From Paraspadella gotoi (taxonomy: Eukaryota; Animalia; Chaetognatha), in NCBI GenBank assembly GCA_051294375.1, contig JBJCIZ010000761.1, forward strand, positions 1 through 14,224: DNA of 14,224 nt, read 5' to 3'. Numbering within the stretch: position 1 is the stretch's first letter; the number at the start of each line of letters is the position of its first letter. Made by a program: the position numbers and the translations under genes. The notes under the pieces were generated by a model that worked only from the letters and a program-made list of their open reading frames with translations, ran no database searches and was not told the origin of the DNA. This document shows, piece after piece, positions 1,620 through 14,224 of the stretch.

Positions 1620-2112
1620 TGTAAGAGGTTTTCAGCAAAAATAATTCTAATATTGTAACTTGTAATGTGCCTAAATGATTATGGCTTCATTTTGGTACTA
1701 TTGGCCATCCCTGTATGCTTTGTTCCTTCAAGAGAATATCAGGAAAATCAGTTTTTTCTCTCACCTTCGCTATTTAGTAGCTGTCTTAGTTAGGCCTCAG
1801 GCTGGATTATAATCTATCCCAAACGCCAAGTTGATAACTAATTGTTGATGTAATCGTGCAATTGATGTGAGTTAAAAACCTTTAAACAAATTAATTATCA
1901 TTTCAAATAATTAATTCCTCAAAATCAATCCTTATTTCATACTTAGTTAACGTCATCCGGGGAGTAGAAAATTCAGTTTCTTCGTTAGCAGTGGGCGATC
2001 CCTGGCGTTCCAAAACGGTACTGATCTCCTCTAACACTTAGCAACGTTTCTAACAAAAGATCAAGTGTTTTCGTCGACGCCAGGTATTGCACGCGTACGA
2101 CCTCTCTTTACA
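1620..2112 (-). repeat. Probable 3' LTR (~493 bp)
   Basis: Starts TGTAAAGAGAGG and ends CCTCTTACA (imperfect terminal inverted repeat), with an internal TATA-like CTAAATAG. The partner LTR is not in the window, so the ends are unconfirmed. Confidence 0.5.
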
Positions 2113-2121
2113 CTCCCACCT
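2113..2121 (-). other. Polypurine tract (AGGTGGGAG) abutting 3' LTR
   Basis: Minus strand reads CAGGTGGGAG|TGTAAAG, a G-rich tract directly before TGT as in BEL elements. Confidence 0.6.
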
Positions 2122-2443
2122 GTACGTAACACGGACACTACAAACAAGAGAGGTCGTAGGCACCACTGTACTTCGCCCTATGGCAGTAGTCTTTGCTTCA
2201 GCATGGCAACCTCCTCTGCAAATTATCCCCAGAAAGTTCAATATCCCCTTCAGTCGTGTAGACCCATCTTGACGATCTTGTTGACAGCTCGTAACTCCGA
2301 TGAGGCTCCAATTCCAACCGGCGTCGTCGCTGCCCATTTGAAACAAAGCGAAGTCGCCCGGCGTCGAGCAGCATCATTCCCGGCCACGTTGTCACGATAA
2401 CGACTTGTCAACGACCCTGGGATCGTCTTCATGGCCGACGATG

Positions 2444-2692
2444 TAGCCGCCGCCGGCGTCGTCCCTTCGACGACGCCTCGAACGGCGGCTCTGCCTCGTT
2501 TTGTTAAGTTCCCGCGTTGACGCCCGTTTAGCCGGCACCAAGTCTTCATAACGATGTCCTTCTAGCCGCCGCCGGCGTCGCCCCCTTGACGACGCCTCGA
2601 ACGGCGGCGCCGCATCTTTGACGACGTCTCCTTCGTATCGTCCTATTAGCCGCCGCCGGCGTCGCCCCTCTGACGACGCCTCGAACGGCGGC
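2444..2692. repeat. Three 46-bp GC-rich direct repeats, each a hairpin (2444-2489, 2563-2608, 2647-2692)
   Basis: Consensus TAGCCGCCGCCGGCGTCG(t/c)ccc(ttc/ctt/tct)GACGACGCCTCGAACGGCGGC. GCCGCCG pairs with CGGCGGC and GGCGTCG pairs with CGACGCC. Confidence 0.92.
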
Positions 2693-3183
2693 ACTTCCTC
2701 CGGCTTGAGTTCTTTTCATTCCGGATCAGTGTGTGCGACTTCGTGCATGCAGTATAATTGATGTTGTATGATTTGGGTGTTGAAACCGATCGCCAACTGC
2801 TCTAACTCAGTTTATCTGGACTTGATCTTATGAGAGTCTTACTTCGATTGATGATCCGGTTTGGTTTCTTTGACCGTTTTCACTCTGGTCTTTTCTCTCC
2901 CCCTTCTTGTTTTTTACAAGAAATTTTGATTTGATTAGTTATGCACACTGTAAAGAGGAACGTAATGATTTGATATTTTGTTCCTTTGAATCACGAATAA
3001 TACAATAATACAATAAATATGTATGTAACAATAGTCATCGGTGTGTCCAGTTCATTTGTTCGTTGCTTAATTCCTTGACTCATTATCTCTACTGCATCAT
3101 TAATTTTCGTCAACCGTTGCTAGGCAACCTTCTTCTCCTCTTCTTATTTTTCGGCTCGGTTTTCTCTCGTCAACATCTCGCTC

Positions 3184-3186
<3 letters not shown>

Positions 3187-3215
<29 letters not shown>
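3187..3215 (-). repeat. Genomic poly(A) tract (29 nt) on the element sense strand
   Basis: T29 on the plus strand. The sense strand reads ATTAAAAATAAAAT immediately before it. Confidence 0.9.
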
Positions 3216-3217
<2 letters not shown>

Positions 3218-3516
3218 TTTATTTTTAATGTCTTTCGTTGTTCTTTTTCTCGTCGTTAAATTAGTTTATATTAAGTTTATTTGTTATGTTAGTTTTGTTC
3301 AAGATTAATTCAAATTTTTTTAAATTTTTCTTTTCTCAGTTTTCTCCCGTTATTATAGTCGTTTTTGTCATGGTACCGGGCATTGAAATATTAAATGCAA
3401 AAATTATGAATGTGCCTCCAGGCCATATGACTCGCCGACGAGGGTTTGGCGGTCGGCTCTGGAAGTGCCGGTCCGGGAAATCAGCTACACCAGATCCGAC
3501 AGTCTCTTAAGAAAGT

Positions 3517-4692
3517 TCAATTCGTTCTTTTCTTCGTCGCTTTCTTCGCCCATTCCGGATATCTTTCTCTCGGAGGAGGCGGAGGCGGCGGCGACATTGG
3601 CTGCAAGGTGGGAATCCTCCTTTTTGACGGAACCGGAACGCGAGAACGCGGCGGCGACCTCACGAAGTGTTCCATCCCTGCTGGTGGACGAAAAGAGGAA
3701 AGACGTAGATCCTGTTGCGGCGGAGATGGCGACCGTGGATGCGGACAAGACAGCGCTTCTATTTTCTCGTACATGCGTCCGCATGTTTGCGACCAAAGTC
3801 GCTCCGTCGTTGCCCGCCTCTGCTCTACCTCTCTCACGCGCCCTTCCAACTTCACCTCAGCTTGGATTCGTCTTTCCGTCTCTTTCTTGAGTTCCTGTTC
3901 GAGGCGCTCTATTTTTACGCGGAGATCGGCTTTTTCCATTTCCGCTCTCACGAGTTCCTGGCTTTGGCGACGGCATCTTTCCTCAAGCTTCGACCACCTG
4001 CTGCCGTCAAGATCCGTCTGTGATGCAGCCGAAAGTTTATTTTTCGTCTCTCCGGATGTCGTCGTTGTCGTTGCGTAGTCGACGGCCGGTCCAGATTTGT
4101 CAAAGATCACGACTCGAGTTGACGTCGCCGTTGGAGGTGGCGGCATGGTGGTCTCTGTAGTTGATTGTGATTGATGATTAGTCCGGATAACTTTGGCCAT
4201 CATTCGTAGCGTCTCCAGATCCGTCCCGTCGTTTATTGCCTTGATCAAGTCGTCGAATTCTGCTTCTCTCCATCCCCTGCATCTCGCCACCTTTCTCCAC
4301 GTTTTTTTTATTCTGCGTACCATTAGTTTATTTTCTTTCGTGATTTTAAAGTTTTTTAGGAAGAATGGCTCGTCGCCACTGTCGATCACTATTGGAACTG
4401 TAAAGTCAATTAATGCTCGTCGGTGCGGCGGTAGCGTTGACCTTTTGTTGAGGAATCTTGATGCAAAATCCTCGCCGTCTGCTGGAAATTGTTCCATGGT
4501 AGATGGCGCCGCAATTTCCTCGATCGACGCCGACGTAGCCAAAGAAATTGTCTCTGTTTCGTCCAGGGATATGCCGGGCTCCCTGAAGTCCCGTGCGAAT
4601 GGGAATTCCCCGAACATCTCCGCTTTTTCTTGGTCCGACGGCGCCCACATGACAGAGTCTAAATTGATGTCCATGTTGGAATATGATTCCAT
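3517..4692 (-). CDS. Accessory ORF7, ~391 aa soluble protein (acidic N-term, globular core, Thr/Pro linker, coiled coil, Pro/Arg-rich basic tail); not env-like
   Basis: Long open frame. The likely start is ATG 4692 (MESYSNM), after acceptor-like TTGTTCACTTATTATAG (4743-4744) and GCTTTCAG (4731-4732). No signal peptide or TM segment is visible. Confidence 0.75.
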   Translation of the reverse strand: MESYSNMDINLDSVMWAPSDQEKAEMFGEFPFARDFREPGISLDETETISLATSASIEEIAAPSTMEQFPADGEDFASRFLNKRSTLPPHRRALIDFTVPIVIDSGDEPFFLKNFKITKENKLMVRRIKKTWRKVARCRGWREAEFDDLIKAINDGTDLETLRMMAKVIRTNHQSQSTTETTMPPPPTATSTRVVIFDKSGPAVDYATTTTTSGETKNKLSAASQTDLDGSRWSKLEERCRRQSQELVRAEMEKADLRVKIERLEQELKKETERRIQAEVKLEGRVREVEQRRATTERLWSQTCGRMYEKIEALSCPHPRSPSPPQQDLRLSSFRPPAGMEHFVRSPPRSRVPVPSKRRIPTLQPMSPPPPPPPRERYPEWAKKATKKRTN

Positions 4693-4995
4693 CGCTATTT
4701 GTTGAATTTGGGATGTAGAATGTATTATATCTGAAAGCTTTCCTATAATAAGTGAACAATAAAAGAATGTATGGTAAATAAACATCGAGTCAAATTTCTT
4801 TTTACGATCAATGGACACTGTAATTGAGTTTATTGCAATTTAAGTATATCACATCTTTTACTTTTCAAACTCGGCCGGACTTTTCGTTTTTGCTCCGTTT
4901 TGATTCTGAATCACGTTGACTGGTAATGCTGGAACGACTTTATAATTTAAATTTAGATTGAGTTAATAACTTTGAAACTCTAGTTAACTATATAG

Positions 4996-5245
4996 CTAGT
5001 TTTTGCTTTTACTTATCGATCTAAATTCTGATTCGAAATTTTTCGAGTGTCTTTTGTCTATTTTTTCGCCCTCTACATTTCTCAGAAAAGTTTCTTCGAA
5101 CTTATCGCTTTTTGCCTTTAAGCGTCCTCAACTCGTCATTCATGTGGATGCTTGGGCGGTTTTTGTCCACTGACTTCGTTACAGCAACTTCCTTTACGAG
5201 GATGCCAAATCTTCCGAACTTTAACGCGATCTGTGAGATGTCCAT
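4996..5245 (-). pseudogene. Accessory ORF6, absent from ORF track: 47 aa as read (5102-5245), ~82 aa if one extra A near 5120 is removed
   Basis: MDISQIALKFGRFGILVKEVAVTKSVDKNRPSIHMNDELRTL, then KAKSDKFEETFLRNVEGEKIDKRHSKNFESEFRSISKSKN* in the shifted frame. Preceded by TTTATACTTGCCTTTAG (AG at 5259-5260). Confidence 0.5.
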
Positions 5246-5340
5246 TTCACTATTGAAACTAAAGGCAAGTATAAACGAAAATATAAATACGGTTCAACAC
5301 GATTCCAATATTTGAATGTTTTTTTTTTATGTCGGGTATT

Positions 5341-5652
5341 TCACGGCGTTTTGATATCTTTGACTTTATCTTTCGTTTGTTTTGAGAAGATCTTATTCTC
5401 AGCTTCCATAATATCGGCCCATCTGTCCAAGTTCTTAATTCTCCATTCATATTCTTCAGACTCTTTTTCCATCGGGAAACCGTGTGCGATGTAATTGTAA
5501 AATAATGATTCTAGTTTATCTCTATTCGCATTTCTTTTTTCCAGCGTGTCTTCAAGGTTATCCGGCGTCATCGCTGCGACTCTGGCTCTCTGTTGGATCC
5601 GAAAGCTCTGTGACTTTCCCGTCTCGTATTCGGTAAGTTCAGATTTGTTCAT
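5341..5652 (-). CDS. Accessory ORF5, 103 aa helical protein
   Basis: AAAAATG start 21 nt after CTTATTCAG (AG at 5674-5675). Shares a motif with ORF4. Confidence 0.65.
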   Translation of the reverse strand: MNKSELTEYETGKSQSFRIQQRARVAAMTPDNLEDTLEKRNANRDKLESLFYNYIAHGFPMEKESEEYEWRIKNLDRWADIMEAENKIFSKQTKDKVKDIKTP

Positions 5653-5722
5653 TTTTGTTTAAATGTCAATACACTGAATAAGTAGCGCTCAAAAAAAAAC
5701 GAACATAATAATAAATGATATT

Positions 5723-6004
5723 TTATTCGAGATTTGGTCTGTTTTGGTATTTCTTGTCTTTTGTGTGGTTCCTCATCGCTTTTTGGAATTTGGAGAAAAT
5801 TCGTTCTTGGGCGAATCTTACCTCGATCCATCTATCGTAGTACTTATTCTGTTCATTTAAATCGGCTTCTAATTGTTTCACTTTTTCTTTGTCATGATTG
5901 TATTTTTCCAATTGTTTTTTAATGTATTTTTCGTAAGAATCTTTCATCTTCATGGCATCTTCTACTGATTGTGGTGTGCAGTCGGCTTCTAGACACCATG
6001 TCAT
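5723..6004 (-). CDS. Accessory ORF4, ~93 aa helical protein (MTWCLEAD...)
   Basis: First in-frame ATG at 6004, downstream of CGTTCGTTCAG (AG at 6033-6034). Shares a DRW-x5-A-x3-IFSK motif with ORF5. Confidence 0.65.
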   Translation of the reverse strand: MTWCLEADCTPQSVEDAMKMKDSYEKYIKKQLEKYNHDKEKVKQLEADLNEQNKYYDRWIEVRFAQERIFSKFQKAMRNHTKDKKYQNRPNLE

Positions 6005-6061
6005 TGTTTCACATCGAAATTTGATCACTTCACTGAACGAACGGTAACAATTTTTGATATT

Positions 6062-6457
6062 CTACTTTCTCGTGGTTTCGACTTTCTTCTCGAGAGTTTT
6101 GATTTTTTCATCGATCTCTTTCTTCTCCTTTTCTAGACGGACTAATATTTCTTCATATATCCAAGAATTTACATACTTTTTTTCAGCTTCAAGGATTTCT
6201 GCTCCTTCTGTTTTTCTTTGTAGCAGGTTGTCTCTCTTTGCTTTGGCCCTTTCTAACGCCTTTTCCGGTGCGCTGGACTCTTCTTCAATTTCTGTTTGTC
6301 TTTTTTCGATCTCTTTTAATTCTACTTCGGGAAGGATTAGTTTTCGAGTAAGATTGATTGACTCTTGATATTCGCCTTTTTTCCATAATTCATGTCCTTT
6401 TTCCCATTCTTTACTAAGTTCATATCGTTTGTCTTTGAAACCTTTTGCAAGGTCCAT
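6062..6457 (-). CDS. Accessory ORF3, ~131 aa coiled-coil-like protein (MDLAKGF...)
   Basis: ATG at 6457 (AAAATG context) lies 5 nt after TTACTTTCTCAG. Confidence 0.65.
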   Translation of the reverse strand: MDLAKGFKDKRYELSKEWEKGHELWKKGEYQESINLTRKLILPEVELKEIEKRQTEIEEESSAPEKALERAKAKRDNLLQRKTEGAEILEAEKKYVNSWIYEEILVRLEKEKKEIDEKIKTLEKKVETTRK

Positions 6458-6536
6458 TTTGGCTGAGAAAGTAATTTTAATTAACGATAACATAACATTG
6501 TTTTTACCAACTGTGATAAACTATTTCACTATATTT

Positions 6537-6896
6537 TTAGATCATCGATTTCTGGATGTTTTTCAGTTTTTTTGTTGTTTCACTGATCTTTTTCTGGGTT
6601 CTTTCTTCGATTATACCGAAGATTTTTTCTCTTTCCGTATGGGTCTCTTTGGCTTTTTTAATGTTTTCTTTGAGCTGCGTCCACTCTTCGATTTTTTTCT
6701 CCAGTTTGGACATTGCTCTGTCTGGATGCTTTTTCACTTCCATCTCTTCCTCCTCGTTCTTCACTTTCAGCTTCAACTCTCTTTCGTTCATGACCAGTTC
6801 GAACACTTCTCTCCAATTATCTTTTCCTTCTTTCTCCCCCGCCAGTCTCTCCCACCTTCTTTCTATTTCCATCCATTTCTCATTCGCCGTTTCCAT
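6537..6896 (-). CDS. Accessory ORF2, ~119 aa coiled-coil-like protein (METANEKW...)
   Basis: ATG at 6896 lies 5 nt after TATTATTACAG. E/K-rich amphipathic sequence. Confidence 0.65.
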   Translation of the reverse strand: METANEKWMEIERRWERLAGEKEGKDNWREVFELVMNERELKLKVKNEEEEMEVKKHPDRAMSKLEKKIEEWTQLKENIKKAKETHTEREKIFGIIEERTQKKISETTKKLKNIQKSMI

Positions 6897-6966
6897 GGTA
6901 ACTGTAATAATACGTGAACGCAATTATCAAAACGAATTTTTATTATACGGATGTTTTTTGATTTCA

Positions 6967-7449
6967 TCATTTCGTTTTAATTTTTCTTCTAATCAGGAAT
7001 AGTCTCTTGTTTCTTTTTTTTGTTCTTTCTTTATCCTCGTCGTGTCTGTTGGTGGTTTCGTCTGTTTCTTCGGGGATGGTCAGTTCTTGTGGTTTCGGCG
7101 TTGTTTGTTGTTCGTTTTTTGGTTTTCTCGACATTCTCTTTGCAATGGAATTCCTCGTCTCCTCGTCGAATTCCTCCTCCGGGATCTTGTATATCTTTTT
7201 GTAAATTGTCTCTTCGTCGTCTACGGGCAATGGTGGCGGAACGTAAATGCCTTTTAGTTCTTTAGTAAGTTCCGTTATCATTTGTCTTCTCCGCCTGACT
7301 GCGTCTAGTATTATGTTTATTTCTGTGGTTGGTGCGTATCCCCATGATTGTACGGCTTCTACCTCCTCCCATAATTCCTTCACCATCTTGTCGATTGATG
7401 ATCTCAACTGTCTCTCAAAACATCCTTTTACAAATAGTTCGATGTTCAT
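6967..7449 (-). CDS. Accessory ORF1, 160 aa, unknown function (helical N-half, acidic/basic tail)
   Basis: ATG-initiated ORF ~150 nt after the pol stop, same strand, with K/E-rich composition like pol. The C-terminus may be altered by an A-run indel near 7015. Confidence 0.65.
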   Translation of the reverse strand: MNIELFVKGCFERQLRSSIDKMVKELWEEVEAVQSWGYAPTTEINIILDAVRRRRQMITELTKELKGIYVPPPLPVDDEETIYKKIYKIPEEEFDEETRNSIAKRMSRKPKNEQQTTPKPQELTIPEETDETTNRHDEDKERTKKRNKRLFLIRRKIKTK

Positions 7450-7601
7450 CTTTTCGATGCTTGTTATTCTCTATGTTTGCATGATTTTCGTATTGACATT
7501 TAATTATTCAATTTGTCTATTAGATTCTTTTCAAACAAATTCAATCTACCGTTCAAGTTTTTAGCTGATTTTTTATGTTTTTCTTTTTTCGGTTGACAGT
7601 T

Positions 7602-8099
7602 TTATTCCAACTCCAGTTGGACCAACGCATTGTGATGTCGTCGAAATGTTCTCCCGTCGGCGAGTCGGACGATTGCTTCTCTTTTGAGCGGGCCGTCTCC
7701 TTTCATCTCGGTGACTCTGCCCGTTCTCCACTGATCCCGCGGTGCGTTCGGCTCGACGAGCATTCGACGACTTGGCCCTCTTTCAGGTTTTCTGCCGAGT
7801 TTCGCCATTTTGTTCTTTCCTGTAATGAGATCAAATATTCTGTATGCCATCTTTTCCAGAATTCGTCAGCCACCTCTCTCACTTGTCTCCAAGCTGCCTT
7901 CATACAGTCTCCTTCTGCTGCTGCATATGGTAATAATGTTAATGATGTTGAGGTGAATAGATATGGATATAAAAAAATTGATGGCGACAGCGCTACTTCG
8001 CTTTTGGGATCGGATGACTCAAATGTTAATGGGCGTCGATTTAATATACCTGCGGTTTCACTTAGGATCGTCGCGAAGGTGTCGACGTCCAATTCGTTT
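7602..8099 (-). pseudogene. pol: Integrase C-terminal part of pol, split by two frameshifts (~8097-8099 and ~7764-7765)
   Basis: ILNRRPLT...LSPS...FWKRWHTEYLISLQERTKW...LKEGQVV (frame of 7703-8161), then MLVEPNAPRDQWRTGRV...RRHHNALVQLELE* (frame of 7602-7850). This is the typical BEL integrase tail. Confidence 0.9.
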
Positions 8100-11000
8100 G
8101 CATGACGGCTTTGAGGTGCTTCTTTGTTTCGCGGATCATCCTTTCCCACGCACCTCCCCAATGAGGAGCGTTTGGCGGTCCGAAAGTCCAGGTGATGCCC
8201 TTTTTGGCTATTCCTTCGTTGACTTTGGTGTCTTCTTGAAGGTGTTGAAGTTGTTTCTCGATTTCGTTGCTGGCGCCTACGAGATTGGTGCCGTTGTCTG
8301 ATACGAATGTCCGTACTCCTGGATAAACATTTTTAAATCTTATTAATGCGCTAAGCATAGATTGAGATGACATGTCTTTTAAGATTTCGAACGCTACTGC
8401 TCGTGTCGTCAGACAAGTGAATATAACGACATTCTTTTTGTTTAGTCCCCGCCCGGCGTGCTTCACCTGAAATGGGCCAAAACAGTCAAGTCCTGTGACT
8501 TCGAATGGGATTGTCTCGTTCACTCGAAATTCTGGATGTTCGGCCATTTTCTGCGGTGACGGGACTTTCAAGTTTCTTTGGCAATTCAAACATCGACGGA
8601 CGATCTTTTCCACTGCGGGTCTTCCTCCCAATAAGGTAAATTTCTGTCTGAGCGAATGAAATGTTGCGCATGCTCCGGAGTGGTATAATGTCACATGTTC
8701 ATGGCGTATCAACGACTCTACGTTTTCTTCATCTTTAGGTAATATGATGGGATGTTTGGTATGATATGGTAGGCCTTTTGAGTTCCCCAACCTTCCTCCA
8801 GTCCTCATTATTCCTTCTTCGTCTATAAATGGGCTCAATGCAATGATTCTCGAATTTCTGTGTCTTAACTCTCTGTGTGAATTTGGCGTCATTACTCCCA
8901 GTTTGAGCAACTCGAATATTTCCTTTTCAAATTTCTTTCTTTGAATAGCTTTGATTAATTTCATTTCGGCTTTTTTAAAGTCTTCTCCTGTCATCATGAT
9001 TTGTTTTCTTTCAATCTTTTCCCCTTTTTTCTCGCGAATTCGACTTTCGACTAGTCCTTTCACGGCTTTTGCAACGTATGCTATTCTTCTTACTTTTTTT
9101 GTCCACTCGCTAATTTTTTCGGTCGCTGTCAGCACCCAATCTTCGCGTTCTTTGCCGATCTCTTTCTTTGGGTATTCTCGCGTCGAATTTGCAAAAATTA
9201 ACTCCATTGGGCTATATTCACTATCATCATGAATCGCGGTTATATTTACTACCGTTTCTTCTTTCTTTTTCTTTAGTTTGTCTAAGTCTTCAGTGACTGG
9301 CCATTCCTCTTTCTTTTTACTAAGCCATTCGGGGCCTTTGTGGAACTTCTTCCAGTTTTCTGTGTCATCTGCGTCGACTCCACGACTTGTGAGATCTGCC
9401 GGGTTTTCTTGTGAAGGTACATATTTCCATTCATTCGGTCTTGATAACGATCGGATCGTTTTTAATCGGAAGTTTTCATATGTCTTAAATCTTTTCTTCC
9501 AATCTCTAATCCATCTTATCACCGTTATTGAGTCCGTGAGCATGTGAATTTCGTCAAACTCCTCTCCCGCTTCTCTAATCATAGTATCTCTTGTCTGTGC
9601 TGCTAATCTAGCCGCGTTCAGCTCTAGTCTTGGCATCGAGTCTCCATGATCCAACTGGTCTTCAATAATTATTTTTTCCTGCATCTTTACTGGAACCACA
9701 TGTGCTTTTGCGAATAATAGTGTTACGTGACTTTTTTCACTGCCCTTGTTTTCCTTCTTAATGTATATCGCCACCCCATAACCTTCACAACTCGCGTCGC
9801 AAAATACTATCAGCGTTGTCTTCACACAATCTAGCCCGATGATGCTCGTCCACCTCGGAATTCTTATTCGCTTCAAGAAATGCATCTTCTTCCTCCATTT
9901 GTCAAACGCTTCGAACAGCTCTTCCGGTAGTTTCTCATCCCAGTCCAATCCTTCCATTACCACTTTCTGGAAAATGCTTCGTCCTTTCAGCACGAAAGGT
10001 GCTACTAATCCCAGTGGGTCGAATACTGACGCCACTAATTTAAGCACGTCTCTCCTCGTCTTTGCCTCTTTTTTAGATTTTTCTGTGACACGCACAAAGA
10101 AAACGTCTCGTTTCGAGTTATAACCAGTTCCTAGTACTTTCGAATCGTGTTCTTCCATCGATGGATCTTCCGGCAGAGCGTTTCCGGCCAGTCCTTCAAG
10201 ATTGTCTTCTAAATCTTCCTCCAGTCCTTCGTCGACATCTTCGTTTGTCGACTCATCATTTTCGTTTTCTTCTGCTTTATCTAATAATATTTTTGGGTGA
10301 GATGCTTGCCACTTGGTTAATTCGAATCCTCCTCTTCTCATAGCCTCCGTCATATCTAGCCTCATTTTTCGAGCTTCTTTAATTCCATCTAAAGTGTCGA
10401 GATAATCGTCGACGTATACTTTTATGAAGAAGGCGATAATGACCTCTGGCGAAAATTCTCCGGTAAAGCTCAACCTTTTTCCATGGTACTGTAGCACGAA
10501 TGTAGCTACTCCCGGGCTTCCTGCTCCCCCGAATACATGTACTAGCGGCTCATGCACCTCCAACGTCTTCATCGATTCGTCTGTGTACCAATGATACCTG
10601 AAAGCGGCAACATCTTTTGGATGTAATTCAACTTGATGGAAAAATCCTTTAATGTCAGCAGAGATTGTATATCTTTTCCTCCTGAATTTTAACAGCATAC
10701 CGATCAGCGGAGTCAGGTTGTCCGGCCCCCCGATAAGATGGTCGTTTAGTGCGTTCCCGTTCACTTTTGATGCTGCGTCTTGGCAAATTCTGAACTTTCC
10801 CGGCTTGTCTGGTCTTGTGACGACTAGTAATGGCGCGAAACATTCTGGATTTCCCGGCGGTGGGTGGTCGGCTACAGCTTTTCTTGCATGACCCGATTCG
10901 ATTGTCTCTTTCATTGTCTTGAATACCCCTTCCTTCAGCACTGGATCTTTCCGCATCTTGTTCGCCAACTTTCGGGCGCGGCTCTCTGCGTTTTTTATGA

Positions 11001-11793
11001 CGTCATCTTTAACCGTCTCAAAAAATTCGGCAGTCTTTTCTCTTCCCTTTTTCCATGGGGATGGCGCGACATAGTGCCCAGTCTTTTCGTTAAAGTATAC
11101 CTCCTTCTCCAGCTGCTCCAATGCGTAACAATCTTCCGCCGACGGATGCTGCACCTCCGAAGGATATTTTTCTGTCCCTCTCATCAAGAAATCATGCCGG
11201 AACATCGACGCGATCATGTACTCTAACTTTTCGTGCTCGTGCGGTGTTGAACAACAACTAATATGGTCTCCGCTTTCGTTCTCACTTGCTCCTACTAATG
11301 TCCATCCAAACAAGGTTTTCAAAGCGACTGGATAACCTTCCGGTCCTTTTCTTATTTCTCCTCCGACCCACGTGTGCGCCAATCTTGCGTCAAGGATCAT
11401 CTCCACCGAATCGTCTTCTAAATCAGCGAATTCCACTCCTTTCATGTAATGATAGTCTTCGATCTCCTCGTTTCTCGTCGGTCGGTCAGTCTCCGTCGTG
11501 AGGACTTCTCCGACCATCACTTTTCTCATCTCTGTCGTGAATGTATCTTCTAAGTTAGAGATTTCGATGTCTCCGTAGTCCCTCCATGCTCTTGAAACTT
11601 TATCATATGTTGTTAAGTTAGTATACTCAGAATAAGTGGCTACATTTAGTTCTTCGGCTATTTTTATCGACATGGCGGAGCGGGTAGCGCCGCTGTCTAG
11701 TAATGCGTACGTAACGACCGATTTTTCACCATTTCTGACTACGACTGGAACGATCGGCCGGAATGCTCCTGTCGTCACGTACGCTGCCGCCAG
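8062..11793 (-). CDS. pol: Pol polyprotein: aspartic protease, reverse transcriptase, RNase H, integrase zinc finger and DDE core
   Basis: Protease YALLDSGA. RT KFRICQDAA, ADIKGFFHQV, VFGGAGSP, YVDD. RNase H VFCDAS, PRLEL, TDS, ENPADLTSRG. Integrase H-x4-H...CLNC, GLDCFGP, SDNGTNL, GGAWERM. The frame is open directly after the gag stop (CTG at 11793). Confidence 0.97.
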   Translation of the reverse strand: MAAAYVTTGAFRPIVPVVVRNGEKSVVTYALLDSGATRSAMSIKIAEELNVATYSEYTNLTTYDKVSRAWRDYGDIEISNLEDTFTTEMRKVMVGEVLTTETDRPTRNEEIEDYHYMKGVEFADLEDDSVEMILDARLAHTWVGGEIRKGPEGYPVALKTLFGWTLVGASENESGDHISCCSTPHEHEKLEYMIASMFRHDFLMRGTEKYPSEVQHPSAEDCYALEQLEKEVYFNEKTGHYVAPSPWKKGREKTAEFFETVKDDVIKNAESRARKLANKMRKDPVLKEGVFKTMKETIESGHARKAVADHPPPGNPECFAPLLVVTRPDKPGKFRICQDAASKVNGNALNDHLIGGPDNLTPLIGMLLKFRRKRYTISADIKGFFHQVELHPKDVAAFRYHWYTDESMKTLEVHEPLVHVFGGAGSPGVATFVLQYHGKRLSFTGEFSPEVIIAFFIKVYVDDYLDTLDGIKEARKMRLDMTEAMRRGGFELTKWQASHPKILLDKAEENENDESTNEDVDEGLEEDLEDNLEGLAGNALPEDPSMEEHDSKVLGTGYNSKRDVFFVRVTEKSKKEAKTRRDVLKLVASVFDPLGLVAPFVLKGRSIFQKVVMEGLDWDEKLPEELFEAFDKWRKKMHFLKRIRIPRWTSIIGLDCVKTTLIVFCDASCEGYGVAIYIKKENKGSEKSHVTLLFAKAHVVPVKMQEKIIIEDQLDHGDSMPRLELNAARLAAQTRDTMIREAGEEFDEIHMLTDSITVIRWIRDWKKRFKTYENFRLKTIRSLSRPNEWKYVPSQENPADLTSRGVDADDTENWKKFHKGPEWLSKKKEEWPVTEDLDKLKKKKEETVVNITAIHDDSEYSPMELIFANSTREYPKKEIGKEREDWVLTATEKISEWTKKVRRIAYVAKAVKGLVESRIREKKGEKIERKQIMMTGEDFKKAEMKLIKAIQRKKFEKEIFELLKLGVMTPNSHRELRHRNSRIIALSPFIDEEGIMRTGGRLGNSKGLPYHTKHPIILPKDEENVESLIRHEHVTLYHSGACATFHSLRQKFTLLGGRPAVEKIVRRCLNCQRNLKVPSPQKMAEHPEFRVNETIPFEVTGLDCFGPFQVKHAGRGLNKKNVVIFTCLTTRAVAFEILKDMSSQSMLSALIRFKNVYPGVRTFVSDNGTNLVGASNEIEKQLQHLQEDTKVNEGIAKKGITWTFGPPNAPHWGGAWERMIRETKKHLKAVMQTNWTSTPSRRS

Positions 11794-11796
11794 TCA
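11705..11796 (-). promoter_or_regulatory. Candidate gag-pol stop-codon readthrough signal (UGA-C, 9-nt spacer, 14-bp stem)
   Basis: mRNA reads UGA CUGGCGGCA GCGUACGUGACGAC ...52 nt... GUCGUUACGUACGC. The arms 11771-11784 and 11705-11718 pair 14/14 with one G-U. Confidence 0.65.
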
Positions 11797-13425
11797 GGAG
11801 GAGCTCTGATTTTGGTCAGTTTCCTCCCGATGTAGGGATGCGTGATGCCTCTGTCCGCATGTCTGGCACCCCATAAGATTTGAGCAAGTTCTTGCCATGT
11901 GACCTCGTCCGAAACATAATCTGCATAAACCTTTCTCTTTCATCCAATTTAATCTCTCGTCGACGTTCAACTCGAGAAACTTCGAACATACTCCCGTGAA
12001 GTGGTTTTTTTCACAAAAATCACATTTCGACTGTCTTGGCCCTCTTGGTGCGTGGTTATTTGGATCTGAATTCGGATTAGCAAAATTTCGATTCGCTGCA
12101 ATGGTTGCTTTCGACGCGCGGGTGGTCGTGGCTGCACGAACGGAAATATGGTTTCTAACGACTTCCCCTGATGTCCTCGCGCTGTTGTAATTAGACCCGC
12201 TCGGTTTGTCTCCCGACACGGTCCCTTGTTTCATCAGTATTCCCATCGTTTCTTTCGATCTAGTTACCTCTTTCACTATGTCTAAGAACTCTTCGAATTT
12301 CAACTCAAGATCGCCTTTCTTTCTGTCATCTCCCTTTAAAATGGCCAATTCATGTTTAGTCATTCTTTTTGCGACAGGATTAGCTAGAAATGGTAATTTT
12401 TTTGAGATGATCTCTATATAAGTTTCGCGAGTTGAAAAGGTTGCGGCACGGTTCGTCTCGATGGCTCTTTTATAAAACCTTTCCATCTCTAGTATAAATG
12501 TTCTTGCCCCCGTGAAATCCCTTTCGTTTATCTTCGGCCCTTTCAGAAGTTCCTCCAGCATCTGCTGCGCCGTGAAATTTTTACGCCCGAATTCTATCTC
12601 CAATGCTTTTTTTGCTTCTTTCAATGCCTCGGTATGGTTTCCCGATGCCTCATGTTGTGACACTATGATCCCAGCGTCCCCGTCGAAATACTCTTTTAGC
12701 TCAGACATTAATATTTCGTCCGTTACTCCCACCACTTTGCTCAACGACTCAAACAAGTTCAATTGTGATTCAAAGTCTACTCGTCGATCCTTTCCACTAA
12801 ATTTTAATTTCGGTCTTTTTTGTCTGACAATACTCAGCGCCTGCTGTTGAGTTTGTAAAATGCATAATTGTGTGAGTGCATTCTCATGTGAGGATTGGAA
12901 ATTAATTTTTTCTTCCTTATTTTTATTCCTCCCTCCCCCGTCCAGGTCCTCAACAAATGATTCGACAACAGACGACATCGTCGGGCGCGGCGCGCTGCGA
13001 CACGAACATTTGTGACACTCAGTTAACATCGACGAGTCCTCAACATTATGAACAGGGATCACGGAAGAAATGACCGGCGGATGTGTTGGCGTGAACGGCG
13101 GCGAGTGACTAATTGACTGTGTTACTATCGGTGACGTTGTGAAAACCGGCGGAGCGAGTATTGTCGGCGGCAACGATGGTAACGGGACCGGCGGTGGCAA
13201 TGTGACGGGCGGCGGCGGCGGTACTATCCGCGGCGGCGGCGCGATCGGCAACGGCGGTGACCCGGACGAAACTGGCGGTGGTTCGGACGAAACTTGCGGC
13301 AGCGCGGACGAACGGACGGCGGAGGAGGCGCGCATGGCGGCGATGAAGTAACGCGGCCGGCCGGCGGCGCAATAATGTTCTGTCGATTCTCGGCTTCTCC
13401 TCTTCTCCTCAAGTAAGTCCCTCAT
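11794..13425 (-). CDS. gag: Gag, main open segment (Pro-rich region, capsid-like DUF1759-type region, three zinc knuckles)
   Basis: C-terminal CDFCEKNHFTGVC, CRLCFGRGHMARTC and CQTCGQRHHASLH match the BEL/Pao triple-knuckle pattern. LKFSG...FE..L..F resembles the BEL gag core. Ends at TGA 11794-11796. The true start is upstream of 13425. Confidence 0.9.
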   Translation of the reverse strand: MRDLLEEKRRSRESTEHYCAAGRPRYFIAAMRASSAVRSSALPQVSSEPPPVSSGSPPLPIAPPPRIVPPPPPVTLPPPVPLPSLPPTILAPPVFTTSPIVTQSISHSPPFTPTHPPVISSVIPVHNVEDSSMLTECHKCSCRSAPRPTMSSVVESFVEDLDGGGRNKNKEEKINFQSSHENALTQLCILQTQQQALSIVRQKRPKLKFSGKDRRVDFESQLNLFESLSKVVGVTDEILMSELKEYFDGDAGIIVSQHEASGNHTEALKEAKKALEIEFGRKNFTAQQMLEELLKGPKINERDFTGARTFILEMERFYKRAIETNRAATFSTRETYIEIISKKLPFLANPVAKRMTKHELAILKGDDRKKGDLELKFEEFLDIVKEVTRSKETMGILMKQGTVSGDKPSGSNYNSARTSGEVVRNHISVRAATTTRASKATIAANRNFANPNSDPNNHAPRGPRQSKCDFCEKNHFTGVCSKFLELNVDERLNWMKEKGLCRLCFGRGHMARTCSNLMGCQTCGQRHHASLHREETDQNQSSS

Positions 13426-14224
13426 GAGCTTGACTAGAAATATCTTCCTCTTCTTTCCTTTCCTCCCTTTCCTTTCCTCCCTCTCACCGTAGTAATGATC
13501 GATTTGGGCACCGTCGTTTCCGGCGGAGATTCCTCAACGTGTGTCGCGTACGATCGGGTTGCGTTCCTCATGACGTTCGACGATCGGGCGTTCCTCGACG
13601 CGGCGCTCGCGATCGGCGTTCCTCAACATGACGTCCGCTCCGGCGACTCACGACGCTCCGACGTGACGCCTTCGTACGACCGCCGTCCGATCTACAAGAA
13701 TACAGGTCTTCTTCAGAGCTGTCTCCACTAATTCGTGATAATCTCTCTTTAACTGCCCTTTCCTTCTTTTCAATAGCCTTTCGTTGAAATTCGAATTCTA
13801 TTGCTTTCTCTCTTTTCCTTCTTCATTCTTTTCCTTTCCGCTTCTCTCATTTTTTCCTCTTTTCTCTTACGGATCTCCTTAATCTTTGCTTCTAACGCTT
13901 CTTCTTCTCTCTTTCGAATCTCCTTCATCTTCGCCTCCAGAGCTTCCTCTTCTTCTCTGCTCTCTCGTTCTACTCTCCTTCTTTCTTTCTCAATCTTATT
14001 CTTTTCTTTCGCTTCCTCAAATGCACGACGCTCATCTTCAACTCTCTCTAGGTCGAGAACCAACCTCTGGCGGATCGTCTCTTGAGACGATCGGGATGAC
14101 TTTGTTACCGACGTTCCCCCGTTTTTCGACGATCTGACGCTCACGCTCGACGGTTCCAAATACGCGGAGATGCCCGTAGCGGATTTCGGCGACGTACATA
14201 CGGACGGAGATGTTGCCACCCAGT
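13426..14224 (-). pseudogene. gag: Frameshift-broken 5' part of gag (Ser-rich then E/K/R coiled coil)
   Basis: ORF 13770-14219 is open to the window edge. Protein-like text continues in shifted frames (EKAIEFEFQRKAIEKKERAVKERLSRISGDSSEED..., VEERPIV-type repeats, VEESPPETTVPKS) down to 13425. It needs several indels to join. Confidence 0.7.
13863..13952 (-). repeat. 45-bp in-frame tandem duplication in gag (EEEALEAK[M/I]KEIRKR x2)
   Basis: Two adjacent 15-codon copies, seen directly in the translation. Confidence 0.9.

Follow-up and report, generated by a model that had tools for sequence, protein, structure and literature searches.

The window analysed here, a 14,224-nt stretch of the Paraspadella gotoi contig JBJCIZ010000761.1, holds a BEL/Pao-type LTR retrotransposon whose sense strand is the minus strand (Table 1). 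Its pol displays the domain order PR-RT-RH-IN together with Pao-type domains, with Pfam matches to RVT_1 (326–452, E 6.7e-05), Peptidase_A17 (539–715, E 1.4e-34), Integrase_H2C2 (982–1034, E 5.6e-08) and, at its end, DUF5641 (E 0.014). The named proteins nearest to this pol (30–33%), from a hemichordate, a schistosome, a sea urchin, a lancelet and a tunicate, have the same domains, and in a pol tree comprising 140 of 169 candidate rows the element falls, separately from these named hits, in a distinct clade of 57 sequences with a support of 1.0. A Pfam search with gag, a protein that in the Belpaoviridae has capsid and nucleocapsid domains, gave no match, and its Cys/His knuckles resemble those of other loci. 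Since the K/E-rich frame at the 5' end runs out of the window, the 5' LTR and the PBS lie outside it; of the paired LTRs of 0.2–1.2 kb and the tRNA primer-binding site that mark the family, the window contains the 3' LTR. The last part of pol sits in two further frames (ORFs 7703–7903 and 7602–7850), which indicates that the end of pol is broken in the window copy.

Table 1. Features of the retrotransposon in the window
Feature	Position	Strand	Description and evidence
5' open frame	13770..14222	-	K/E-rich, likely N-terminal part of gag; extends past window edge
gag	11794..13425	-	543 aa from ATG, C-terminal Cys/His knuckles; 27–30% identity to gag of clade loci L002–L004, E 1e-36 to 1e-43
In-frame TGA-CTG	11791..11796	-	Likely readthrough site between gag and pol; TGA-CTN in 6/6 (window, L001–L005)
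pol	7602..11793	-	PR-RT-RH-IN-DUF5641; Pfam; frame open to 8062
ORF1	6967..7449	-	160 aa, helical N-half, PPPLP motif, basic C-terminus; orphan; ORF call, codon score
ORF2	6537..6896	-	119 aa, 40% K/E, amphipathic; weak ORF3 paralog; acceptor-like CAG ends 6902
ORF3	6062..6493	-	143 aa; 131 aa from second ATG 6457, 5 nt behind acceptor-like CAG at 6463
ORF4	5723..6004	-	93 aa, strongly amphipathic; probable ORF5 paralog; acceptor-like CAG at 6033; in frame of ORF3
ORF5	5341..5652	-	103 aa, three predicted helices with confident hairpin; acceptor-like CAG at 5674
ORF6	5102..5245	-	47 aa, doubtful gene; codon score reached by 83/2000 shuffles
ORF7	3517..4785	-	422 aa, Pro-rich, one coiled-coil-like stretch, basic C-terminus; orphan
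29-A run	3187..3215	-	ATTAAA and AATAAA ahead; ~300 nt behind ORF7 stop
Three 57-nt repeats	2444..2703	-	GC-rich, 86–100% alike, predicted hairpins; common to more abundant relatives in same organism
Polypurine tract (PPT)	2113..2121	-	AGGTGGGAG, in loop of 13-bp stem; TGT follows at 2112
3' LTR	1843..2112	-	TGT...ACA, ~270 bp; start supported, end inferred; contig ends, depth drop
Antisense RNA of element family	7617..14224	+	Multiply spliced; joints in X5/X6 contigs, depth 126–188
Antisense introns	7787–7859, 7930–8065, 8192–8445, 8636–12945, 13413–13492, 13706–14051	+	All GT..AG

The 3' LTR does not follow straight after pol; a position directly behind pol was what the preliminary description had named as fatal to its reading. 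It is preceded by a PPT of ~10 nt, and two of the 32 contig pieces listed (994 further pieces exist) end exactly at 2112, which supports the start of the LTR. Read depth drops towards the LTR end (1779–1861) in each of the four runs, reaching 0 in X5 and X7, and it peaks at 2443–2691, over the GC-rich repeats, again in all four. In the antisense RNA, the longest stop-free frame has 112 codons.

Gag and pol are separated by an in-frame TGA-CTN in every clade member with a readable gag end (the window element and L001, L002, L003, L004 and L005). Its position is fixed at 30–31 codons before the protease motif, which in the window element reads LLDSGAT and lies ~30 codons past the gag TGA in the same frame. 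Gag-Pol is probably made by UGA readthrough, a process promoted in Sindbis virus by a C directly after the UGA (PMC2194720). An in-frame stop is also found between gag and pol in MuLV and Tca2, and between pol and env in SIRE1; here, in contrast, TGA-CTN is kept across a BEL/Pao-type clade at a fixed distance from the protease motif, and the clade constitutes a ready collection of natural readthrough signals. Kamikaze is reportedly a further BEL element with a gag stop.

Seven ORFs lie on the sense strand of the 5.5-kb stretch that runs from the stop of pol (7602) to the PPT and 3' LTR (2113/2112). They had been described as seven genes, of which six are well supported (five if ORF3 and ORF4 are one) and one, ORF6, is doubtful. 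Scored against the codon usage of the gag and pol of the element, ORF1, ORF2, ORF3, ORF5 and ORF7 reach values attained by none of 2000 shuffles and ORF4 by three, while ORF6 stays within the chance range (83 of 2000), 109 of 2000 of its shuffles being free of stops. Five ATG-initiated ORFs of at least 90 aa occupy 75% of positions 5100–7601, a number reached in 0 of 1000 trials under each of three null models. The T content climbs right behind all seven stops and drops at the ATG in five of seven cases (ORF2–6), so that the frames start and stop where the coding composition does. From ORF1 to ORF6 the stop-to-first-ATG gaps measure 70, 43, 57, 70 and 95 nt, which bears out the tight head-to-tail packing first noted, if not its range of ~55–95 nt, and 316 nt then separate ORF6 from ORF7. 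ORF3 and ORF4 share one frame, with a single TAG and 19 open codons between them.

The K/E-rich, helical character attributed to ORF1–6 holds for ORF1–5 (24–40% K/E) but not for ORF6 (19%), in which amphipathic periodicity is absent, its value being attained by 263 of 300 shuffles; ORF7 contains 15% K/E. Transmembrane segments are expected above a hydropathy of ~1.6. Over the ORFs the peak 19-residue value is 1.17, so that no transmembrane helix is present, in agreement with the preliminary description; an env with a transmembrane anchor, as in complex retroviruses, is likewise absent by this value and by the lack of a family match. In the AlphaFold model of ORF5 the mean pLDDT is 74, with residues 31–90 at 80–89. 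For ORF1–7, no homolog was found in the databases searched, nor a fold pointing to any function. The alignment of ORF4 with ORF5 scores 71, a value that among 1000 shuffles each is attained by none when residues are permuted and by 11 when heptad blocks are, and these two are probably paralogs; for ORF2 and ORF3 the corresponding counts are nine and 25 of 1000, which points weakly to paralogy.

An acceptor-like YAG stands ahead of six of the seven ATGs (p ~0.03), the acceptor score of 41 comparing with a shuffle mean of 20 and being reached by 131 of 5000 shuffles; this result is modest, the ATGs of ORF3 and ORF7 having been picked after looking. The mean score is 5.9 in the array against 2.3 at 32 internal ATGs of pol, and a purine occupies position -3 in all seven chosen ATGs. 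The acceptor of ORF1 is weak, ORF4 scored none because an ATG-TGA intervenes, and ORF7 has a second ATG at 4692 (391 aa) with acceptor-like sites ahead at 4743 and 4731. In a trans-spliced operon each gene would receive a spliced leader and be followed by a poly(A) site; here AATAAA occurs at or behind four upstream stops or spacers (7606, 6944, 5727 and 4834), a motif common anyway in an A-rich strand. No sense splice joint in the array was found among the 15 joints listed (8 further exist). The acceptor-like sites make splicing onto each ORF the likeliest mode of expression, and cis-splicing from the 5' leader, rather than spliced-leader trans-splicing, is somewhat favoured. The label 'operon-like' thus fits the packing of the ORFs, but the sites before the ATGs favour separately spliced mRNAs over a polycistron. 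Precedents are provided by the ORF3s of bdelloid rotifer elements, which are 3' ORFs reported to be expressed from spliced messages (PMC5408684), by orf a and b of WDSV, expressed from spliced subgenomic RNAs (PMC3185748), and by the env of Tor, a spliced or subgenomic 3' ORF (PMC4402516).

In the reading that we prefer, the region from pol to the 3' LTR would hold six small soluble protein genes belonging to the element, separate mRNAs would arise by splicing of a shared 5' leader to the acceptor that immediately precedes each ATG, and the products may serve as adaptors that bind proteins of the host or Gag. ORF4 and ORF5, as well as ORF2 and ORF3, would have arisen by tandem duplication. Taken whole, this reading has about an even chance of being correct.

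Its first part, that the array is element-borne rather than a passenger, is probable. An unbroken DNA contig (X2 record 3, 5319–10765) joins pol and ORF1–5, although the DNA set that contains the element best may be the one from which the window derives, and two pieces from a separate study (X7, 7565–7763 and 7414–7591) span pol into ORF1. It is unlikely that the block from ~7563 to 3187 represents a polyadenylated RNA that a single copy acquired in its 3' part by retro-insertion or capture and that the element does not use. The 29-A run behind ATTAAA and AATAAA closes the block, and the 10-mer AAAAAATCAG occurs twice, like a TSD, once ~30 nt past the stop of pol and once where the A run ends; however, an 11-letter match to the same junction is found in gag, so that matches of such size occur by chance, and the X2 contig is unbroken at 7564. 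The array, found in one subfamily of one organism only, is covered less deeply than any other part of the element (116 in X2 versus >1000 for parts of pol), and it is missing from L080, the sole clade element obtained with >1 kb after pol. L080 carries there one unrelated 413-aa ORF with a coding signature (0 of 1000), in frame behind a strong pyrimidine tract and CAG and with no similarity to ORF7. Yet homopolymer runs are also present in this 3' region of L080, and the depth in X2 of the 3' UTR behind the A run (138) is close to that of the array (116–162), which leaves no surplus of near-identical empty copies. The codon use of the array also matches that of the element, a source gene was searched for and not found, and six genes on one host mRNA would be unusual.

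Translation of the genes from a polycistron by reinitiation, with ORF7 as a transactivator expressed from its own promoter, is improbable. The head-to-tail order, the gaps of 43–95 nt and the longer spacer before the last gene resemble the polycistron of caulimoviruses with its TAV/P6; in CaMV, a 106-bp spacer before ORF VI carries the 19S promoter (PMC5902531). Part of the spacer near 5094 is common to more abundant relatives, and the sole RNA-like contig over a spacer (X5 record 9, depth 3.2) crosses that between ORF5 and ORF6 unspliced. Caulimoviruses, however, have no LTRs or integrase and no sequence link to the element, ORF7 gave no Pfam or sequence match, TAV/P6 included, an ATG-TGA lies just upstream of ORF4, and reinitiation needs no acceptor-like sites before the ATGs.

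Still less probable are one or two larger coiled-coil genes, with the spacers as introns or with ORF3 and ORF4 forming a single gene across a TAG that is either a nonsense codon or read through. In-frame GT..AG joins (15 listed) are possible for ORF2–3, 3–4, 4–5 and 5–6, introns as short as 73 and 80 nt are spliced in the host, and ORF3 and ORF4 are indeed divided by one TAG. Nevertheless, no join is possible for ORF1–2 or ORF6–7 within the ranges tested, most joins remove coding-like sequence, including the part common to ORF4 and ORF5, and coding composition continues up to each stop. The ORF3/4 spacer is T-rich (0.33–0.36), as are the others, ORF5 has an in-frame stop two codons ahead of its ATG, and sense introns would tend to vanish on retrotransposition. 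That the ORFs arose by chance on a strand rich in A and poor in T is very improbable: they contain 40–47% A and lack homologs, and ORF6 is within chance, but for ORF1–5 and ORF7 such an origin is refuted at the level of the null-model and codon-score tests, stops being frequent in the other two frames and the codon scores frame-specific, with position asymmetry.

As the preliminary description had held, an array of this kind is atypical of BEL/Pao. Members of the Belpaoviridae are described with one to three genes in 4.2–10 kb (PMC8742986) and with gag and pol continuous or overlapping (PMC8742986; PMC3118150). The element shares with them the Pao peptidase A17, RT, integrase and DUF5641, the ~10-nt PPT and an LTR of ~270 bp, but exceeds 12.4 kb, carries six or seven additional genes without any env-like one among them, where the family normally has none or one between pol and the 3' LTR, and has a TGA-CTN interrupting the frame that gag and pol share; it is therefore classed as a BEL/Pao-type variant, not as a typical Semotivirus member.

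Several accessory genes before the 3' LTR are also found in WDSV and in the foamy-like AcERV of fish, the latter having a genome of >17 kb with five accessory ORFs that lack both transmembrane motifs and known domains (PMC5210030). Both belong to the Retroviridae, with an env and with purifying selection shown, whereas the present element lacks env, belongs to a different RT family and carries smaller, all-helical genes. LTR elements of bdelloid rotifers likewise carry non-env ORFs behind pol (ORF3 of coiled-coil, GDSL and DEDDy types), but one per family in the account given, compared with an array of six here (PMC5408684). Plant Retand elements share a long region between pol and the 3' LTR (2.9–6.6 kb, with extra ORFs and repeats) and differ in their Gypsy lineage and in their extra ORFs, which are antisense and carry TRP28 (PMC11963269).

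Returning to the element-borne, separately spliced genes, we tentatively propose that ORF1–5 act as adaptors or decoys and that ORF7 functions in the nucleus or in RNA regulation, possibly by way of the three 3' hairpins. More broadly, the element could possibly, at a comparably low level of confidence, represent an undescribed 'complex' BEL/Pao lineage with UGA readthrough, a spliced antisense RNA and no envelope, some members of which would express about six duplicated helical accessory proteins from a nested set of mRNAs, spliced or leader trans-spliced, and use a Rev- or TAV-like ORF7 acting on the three hairpins.

Accessory-gene arrays mark complex retroviruses and pararetroviruses, and descriptions of BEL/Pao elements go no further than gag, pol and env. 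Should the array prove conserved and expressed, BEL/Pao too would have evolved gene-rich complexity, without an envelope, and the genes would for this reason point to intracellular host barriers such as silencing, RNA export and particle traffic, for which the array supplies six orphan proteins to test.

All seven sense ORFs (see table) are present where the preliminary description had placed them, between the pol stop and the polypurine tract, and six of the seven genes that it claimed are well supported because of ORF cover, codon scores and T-content borders, ORF6 being doubtful. ORFs of at least 90 aa number five and cover 75% of 5100–7601, which was equalled in none of 3 × 1000 null sequences. 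When the ORFs were scored with a codon model derived from this element's gag and pol and compared with 2000 shuffles, ORF1, ORF2, ORF3, ORF5 and ORF7 scored above all 2000, and the scores of ORF4 and ORF6 were reached by three and 83 shuffles, respectively. Behind each of the seven stops the T content goes up; at the start codon it goes down in ORF2–ORF6, but not in ORF1 or ORF7.

Coordinates of the features (element on the minus strand)
Feature	Position	Remarks
Gag-end TGA-CTN	11791–11796	in frame with pol
pol stop	7602	
ORF1	7449–6967	
ORF2	6896–6537	
ORF3	6493–6062	
ORF4	6004–5723	
ORF5	5652–5341	
ORF6	5245–5102	doubtful
ORF7	4785–3517	
GC-rich repeats	2444–2703	three of 57 nt; predicted long hairpins; common to abundant relatives
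13-bp inverted repeat	2095–2157	loop holds polypurine tract and LTR start
Polypurine tract	2121–2113	
3′ LTR	2112–1843	begins with TGT; end at terminal ACA inferred
CA, then TGGCG	1824–1832	just past inferred LTR end; resembles a primer-binding site, probably by chance
Flanking repeat(s)	700–1780	very abundant; depth up to 115 000 in sequencing run X2
Antisense RNA	7617–14224	plus strand; six introns within this range

The minus strand of the window carries most of an LTR retrotransposon, the gag region of which passes off the right end; its 5′ LTR lies beyond the window. Its pol contains Pao-type Pfam domains (Peptidase_A17, E = 1.4e-34; RVT_1; Integrase_H2C2; DUF5641); in this copy it is open to 8062 and is broken behind that point, as its last part falls in two further frames. 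The 3′ LTR does not follow pol directly, but starts 5.5 kb beyond it, immediately after the polypurine tract. Of the 32 contig pieces listed, two (drawn from two runs) stop precisely at 2112. Depth collapses at 1779–1861, beyond which the very abundant flanking repeat begins, and an alternative LTR start at 3175 was dropped on these contig-end and depth data. With the terminal ACA at 1843 as its end, the LTR would measure approximately 270 bp. The three predicted hairpins are a candidate packaging or export signal; Rfam gave no match within 1700–7700 and hence none for them, and the bacterial and phage matches to an 18-nt hairpin pattern were put down to chance. No tRNA was found.

The array occurs in nine sequencing runs of one organism, nearly whole in four (possibly the window's own source) and at 0.06–0.28 of words in the others. 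In X2 a single contig covers 5319–10765, with four other letters and 12 gap positions relative to the window, and further contigs of like depth (116–162) lie over 4520–5328, 3236–4549 and 2584–3180, while in X7, a run from another study, overlapping pieces lead from pol into ORF1. None of the pieces listed holds the whole element. It is unlikely that the array is a captured or retro-inserted polyadenylated block, a reading to which a 29-A run and a possible 10-nt duplication lend some weight. The same organism also contains commoner, diverged relatives, whose matches fall in parts of pol, gag, the LTR, the three hairpins and a stretch near 5094 and hardly at all in ORF1–ORF3, for which reason the array in its present form belongs to a low-copy subfamily, depth being only a rough guide. 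This short stretch (about 5050–5113, at the end of ORF6), to which such relatives also contribute (X2 depth at 5094: 614 of 776), may be a cis element or an ORF7 promoter. Across ORF4–ORF6 (5065–5798) the X2 depth is 189–254 against a baseline of 116–162, which hints at diverged copies of this region in the same organism.

A eukaryotic ribosome on the genomic RNA would not get to these ORFs. The favoured mechanism is that one shared leader would be spliced onto an acceptor ahead of each ORF, on account of acceptor-like sites in the array, an acceptor in a relative (locus L080, below) and precedent for splicing to 3′ ORFs in passages on rotifer elements (PMC5408684), WDSV (PMC3185748) and Tor (PMC4402516). 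A pyrimidine-preceded YAG stands 5–38 nt before the ATG in six of the seven ORFs, with a score that 131 of 5000 shuffles equalled, and a purine is at −3 of every one of the seven ATGs; ORF4 has a YAG 28 nt upstream, with an intervening ATG-TGA. Counting against splicing, no sense joint is among the joints listed, and the ORF5/ORF6 spacer is retained, unspliced, in a single contig of low depth. Reinitiation on one RNA is improbable. ORF3 and ORF4 lie in the same frame, interrupted by a single TAG; that the spacers are introns, or the array one larger broken gene, has still less probability. Set beside the coding evidence, chance ORFs are hardly credible.

Spliced RNA was seen on the opposite strand. 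Contigs from runs X5 and X6 (depth 126–188), the tables of which are almost identical and were counted as one, contain six joints, all GT..AG on the plus strand and thus antisense to the element, with introns of 73–4310 nt. Its depth in X5/X6 greatly exceeds that of every contig across the accessory ORFs; no run with the array is recorded as RNA, and the low or missing cover of ORF1–ORF3 in these two runs says nothing on expression. Judged by its length, the main antisense contig extends to about 7616, and since another AG behind a pyrimidine tract is present at that point, additional exons may follow towards the 3′ LTR. Its longest stop-free frame is 112 codons, with no long ORF. Spliced antisense transcripts of transposons are already known (10.1101/2023.05.27.542554).

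The absence of transmembrane segments claimed in the preliminary description was borne out for every ORF. Amphipathic periodicity is present in ORF1, ORF2, ORF4 and ORF5 (reached by 12, 2, 0 and 22 of 300 shuffles, respectively), and on average there was none in ORF3, ORF6 and ORF7. ORF4 and ORF5 are probable paralogs, judging from 27% identity, the presence of DRW and IFSK in both and a score reached by none of 1000 residue shuffles and 11 of 1000 heptad-block shuffles; 21 ORF pairs were tested by the former and eight by the latter. ORF2 and ORF3 (nine and 25 of 1000, respectively) are weak candidates for a second pair. No DNA-level repeat remained among the ORF units, a high U1–U2 DNA score being an artefact of overlapping ranges. 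ORF2 was rejected as a member of the ORF4/ORF5 profile (prob. 0.3), codon-position identity between paralogs was set aside as circular, and a weak likeness of ORF2 and ORF7 to gag frames (1–3 of 300 shuffles, 14 pairs) was ascribed to composition.

No accepted family was found for ORF1–ORF7 in Pfam and PHROGs; for ORF2, ORF3 and ORF6 the best Pfam matches (E = 0.011–0.09) all failed to reach the cut-off, PHROGs gave a single 36-residue match (E = 0.0055) and tblastn against the 80 collected loci gave none. ORF7 had no match at E = 0.001 among 1.84 billion representatives, and in the 5.8-billion set, at near lengths only, none of 14 candidates was accepted for the ORF4/ORF5 alignment and none of 20 for ORF1. 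Scans of viral and prokaryote contigs revealed no relative. A portal protein assignment for ORF1 (Atlas 0.92) was discarded, with fewer than 170 shared features, recognition under the tool's threshold and nothing in Pfam or PHROGs. Fold prediction, as proposed earlier, gave an AlphaFold model of ORF5 with three helices and a confident hairpin, but only generic hairpins matched it, none at E = 0.001; a death-domain likeness at ORF7 residues 105–210, suggested by a sequence motif, gained no support (AlphaFold pLDDT 48; best E among PDB sequences 0.04; none in Atlas). As the searches gave no homolog or fold, the functional reading is drawn from anatomy. Proteins that are small, amphipathic and helical, and that undergo duplication and rapid divergence, would most likely bind other proteins, and we conjecture that ORF7, with its basic tail, and the three hairpins might form an RNA-export or regulatory pair.

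The pol has about 50 relatives at 36–44% identity, followed by a gap down to named animal elements at 30–33%, and an RT–RNase H tree (140 of 169 rows kept) places the window within a clade of 57 sequences with support 1.0; locus L004, the length of which did not suffice for the tree, shares gag similarity with the others. One cluster member is filed under a marine bacterial bin, a slight hint at marine hosts. In all six readable members (the window and L001–L005) a TGA-CTN closes gag while keeping the frame of pol, 30–31 codons ahead of the protease motif, which in 25 of 26 other loci is preceded by no such stop. Programmed readthrough is likely; in-frame stops are known in MuLV and Tca2, where the bypass mechanism turned out to be non-canonical (PMC2194720). 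More than 1 kb behind pol is seen in only one other clade element (L002/L080), with 3.1 kb on a contig that stops before any LTR. There, a 413-aa orphan ORF (L080 4687–6082; coding signature, 0/1000) combines a K/E coiled coil, RS repeats and Pro/Ala-rich sequence, a strong splice acceptor lies 153 nt upstream of it and a repetitive 155-aa ORF (3/1000) also lies behind pol; this region has no array and no similarity to ORF7. Short GC-rich motifs are repeated there. Ten clade proteins lie on contigs of 10–12.8 kb, which suggests that long 3′ regions are common in the clade.

No multi-gene array in a BEL/Pao element came up in the literature search, the scope of which excluded subscription papers, repeat libraries such as Repbase, and supplements, where one may be described. 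The finding is confined to a single subfamily. The element departs from the ICTV description of BEL/Pao (PMC8742986) in length, gene number and gag–pol junction. It differs from a complex retrovirus in its Pao-type pol and lack of env, whereas the accessory region, as far as can be told, would work alike.
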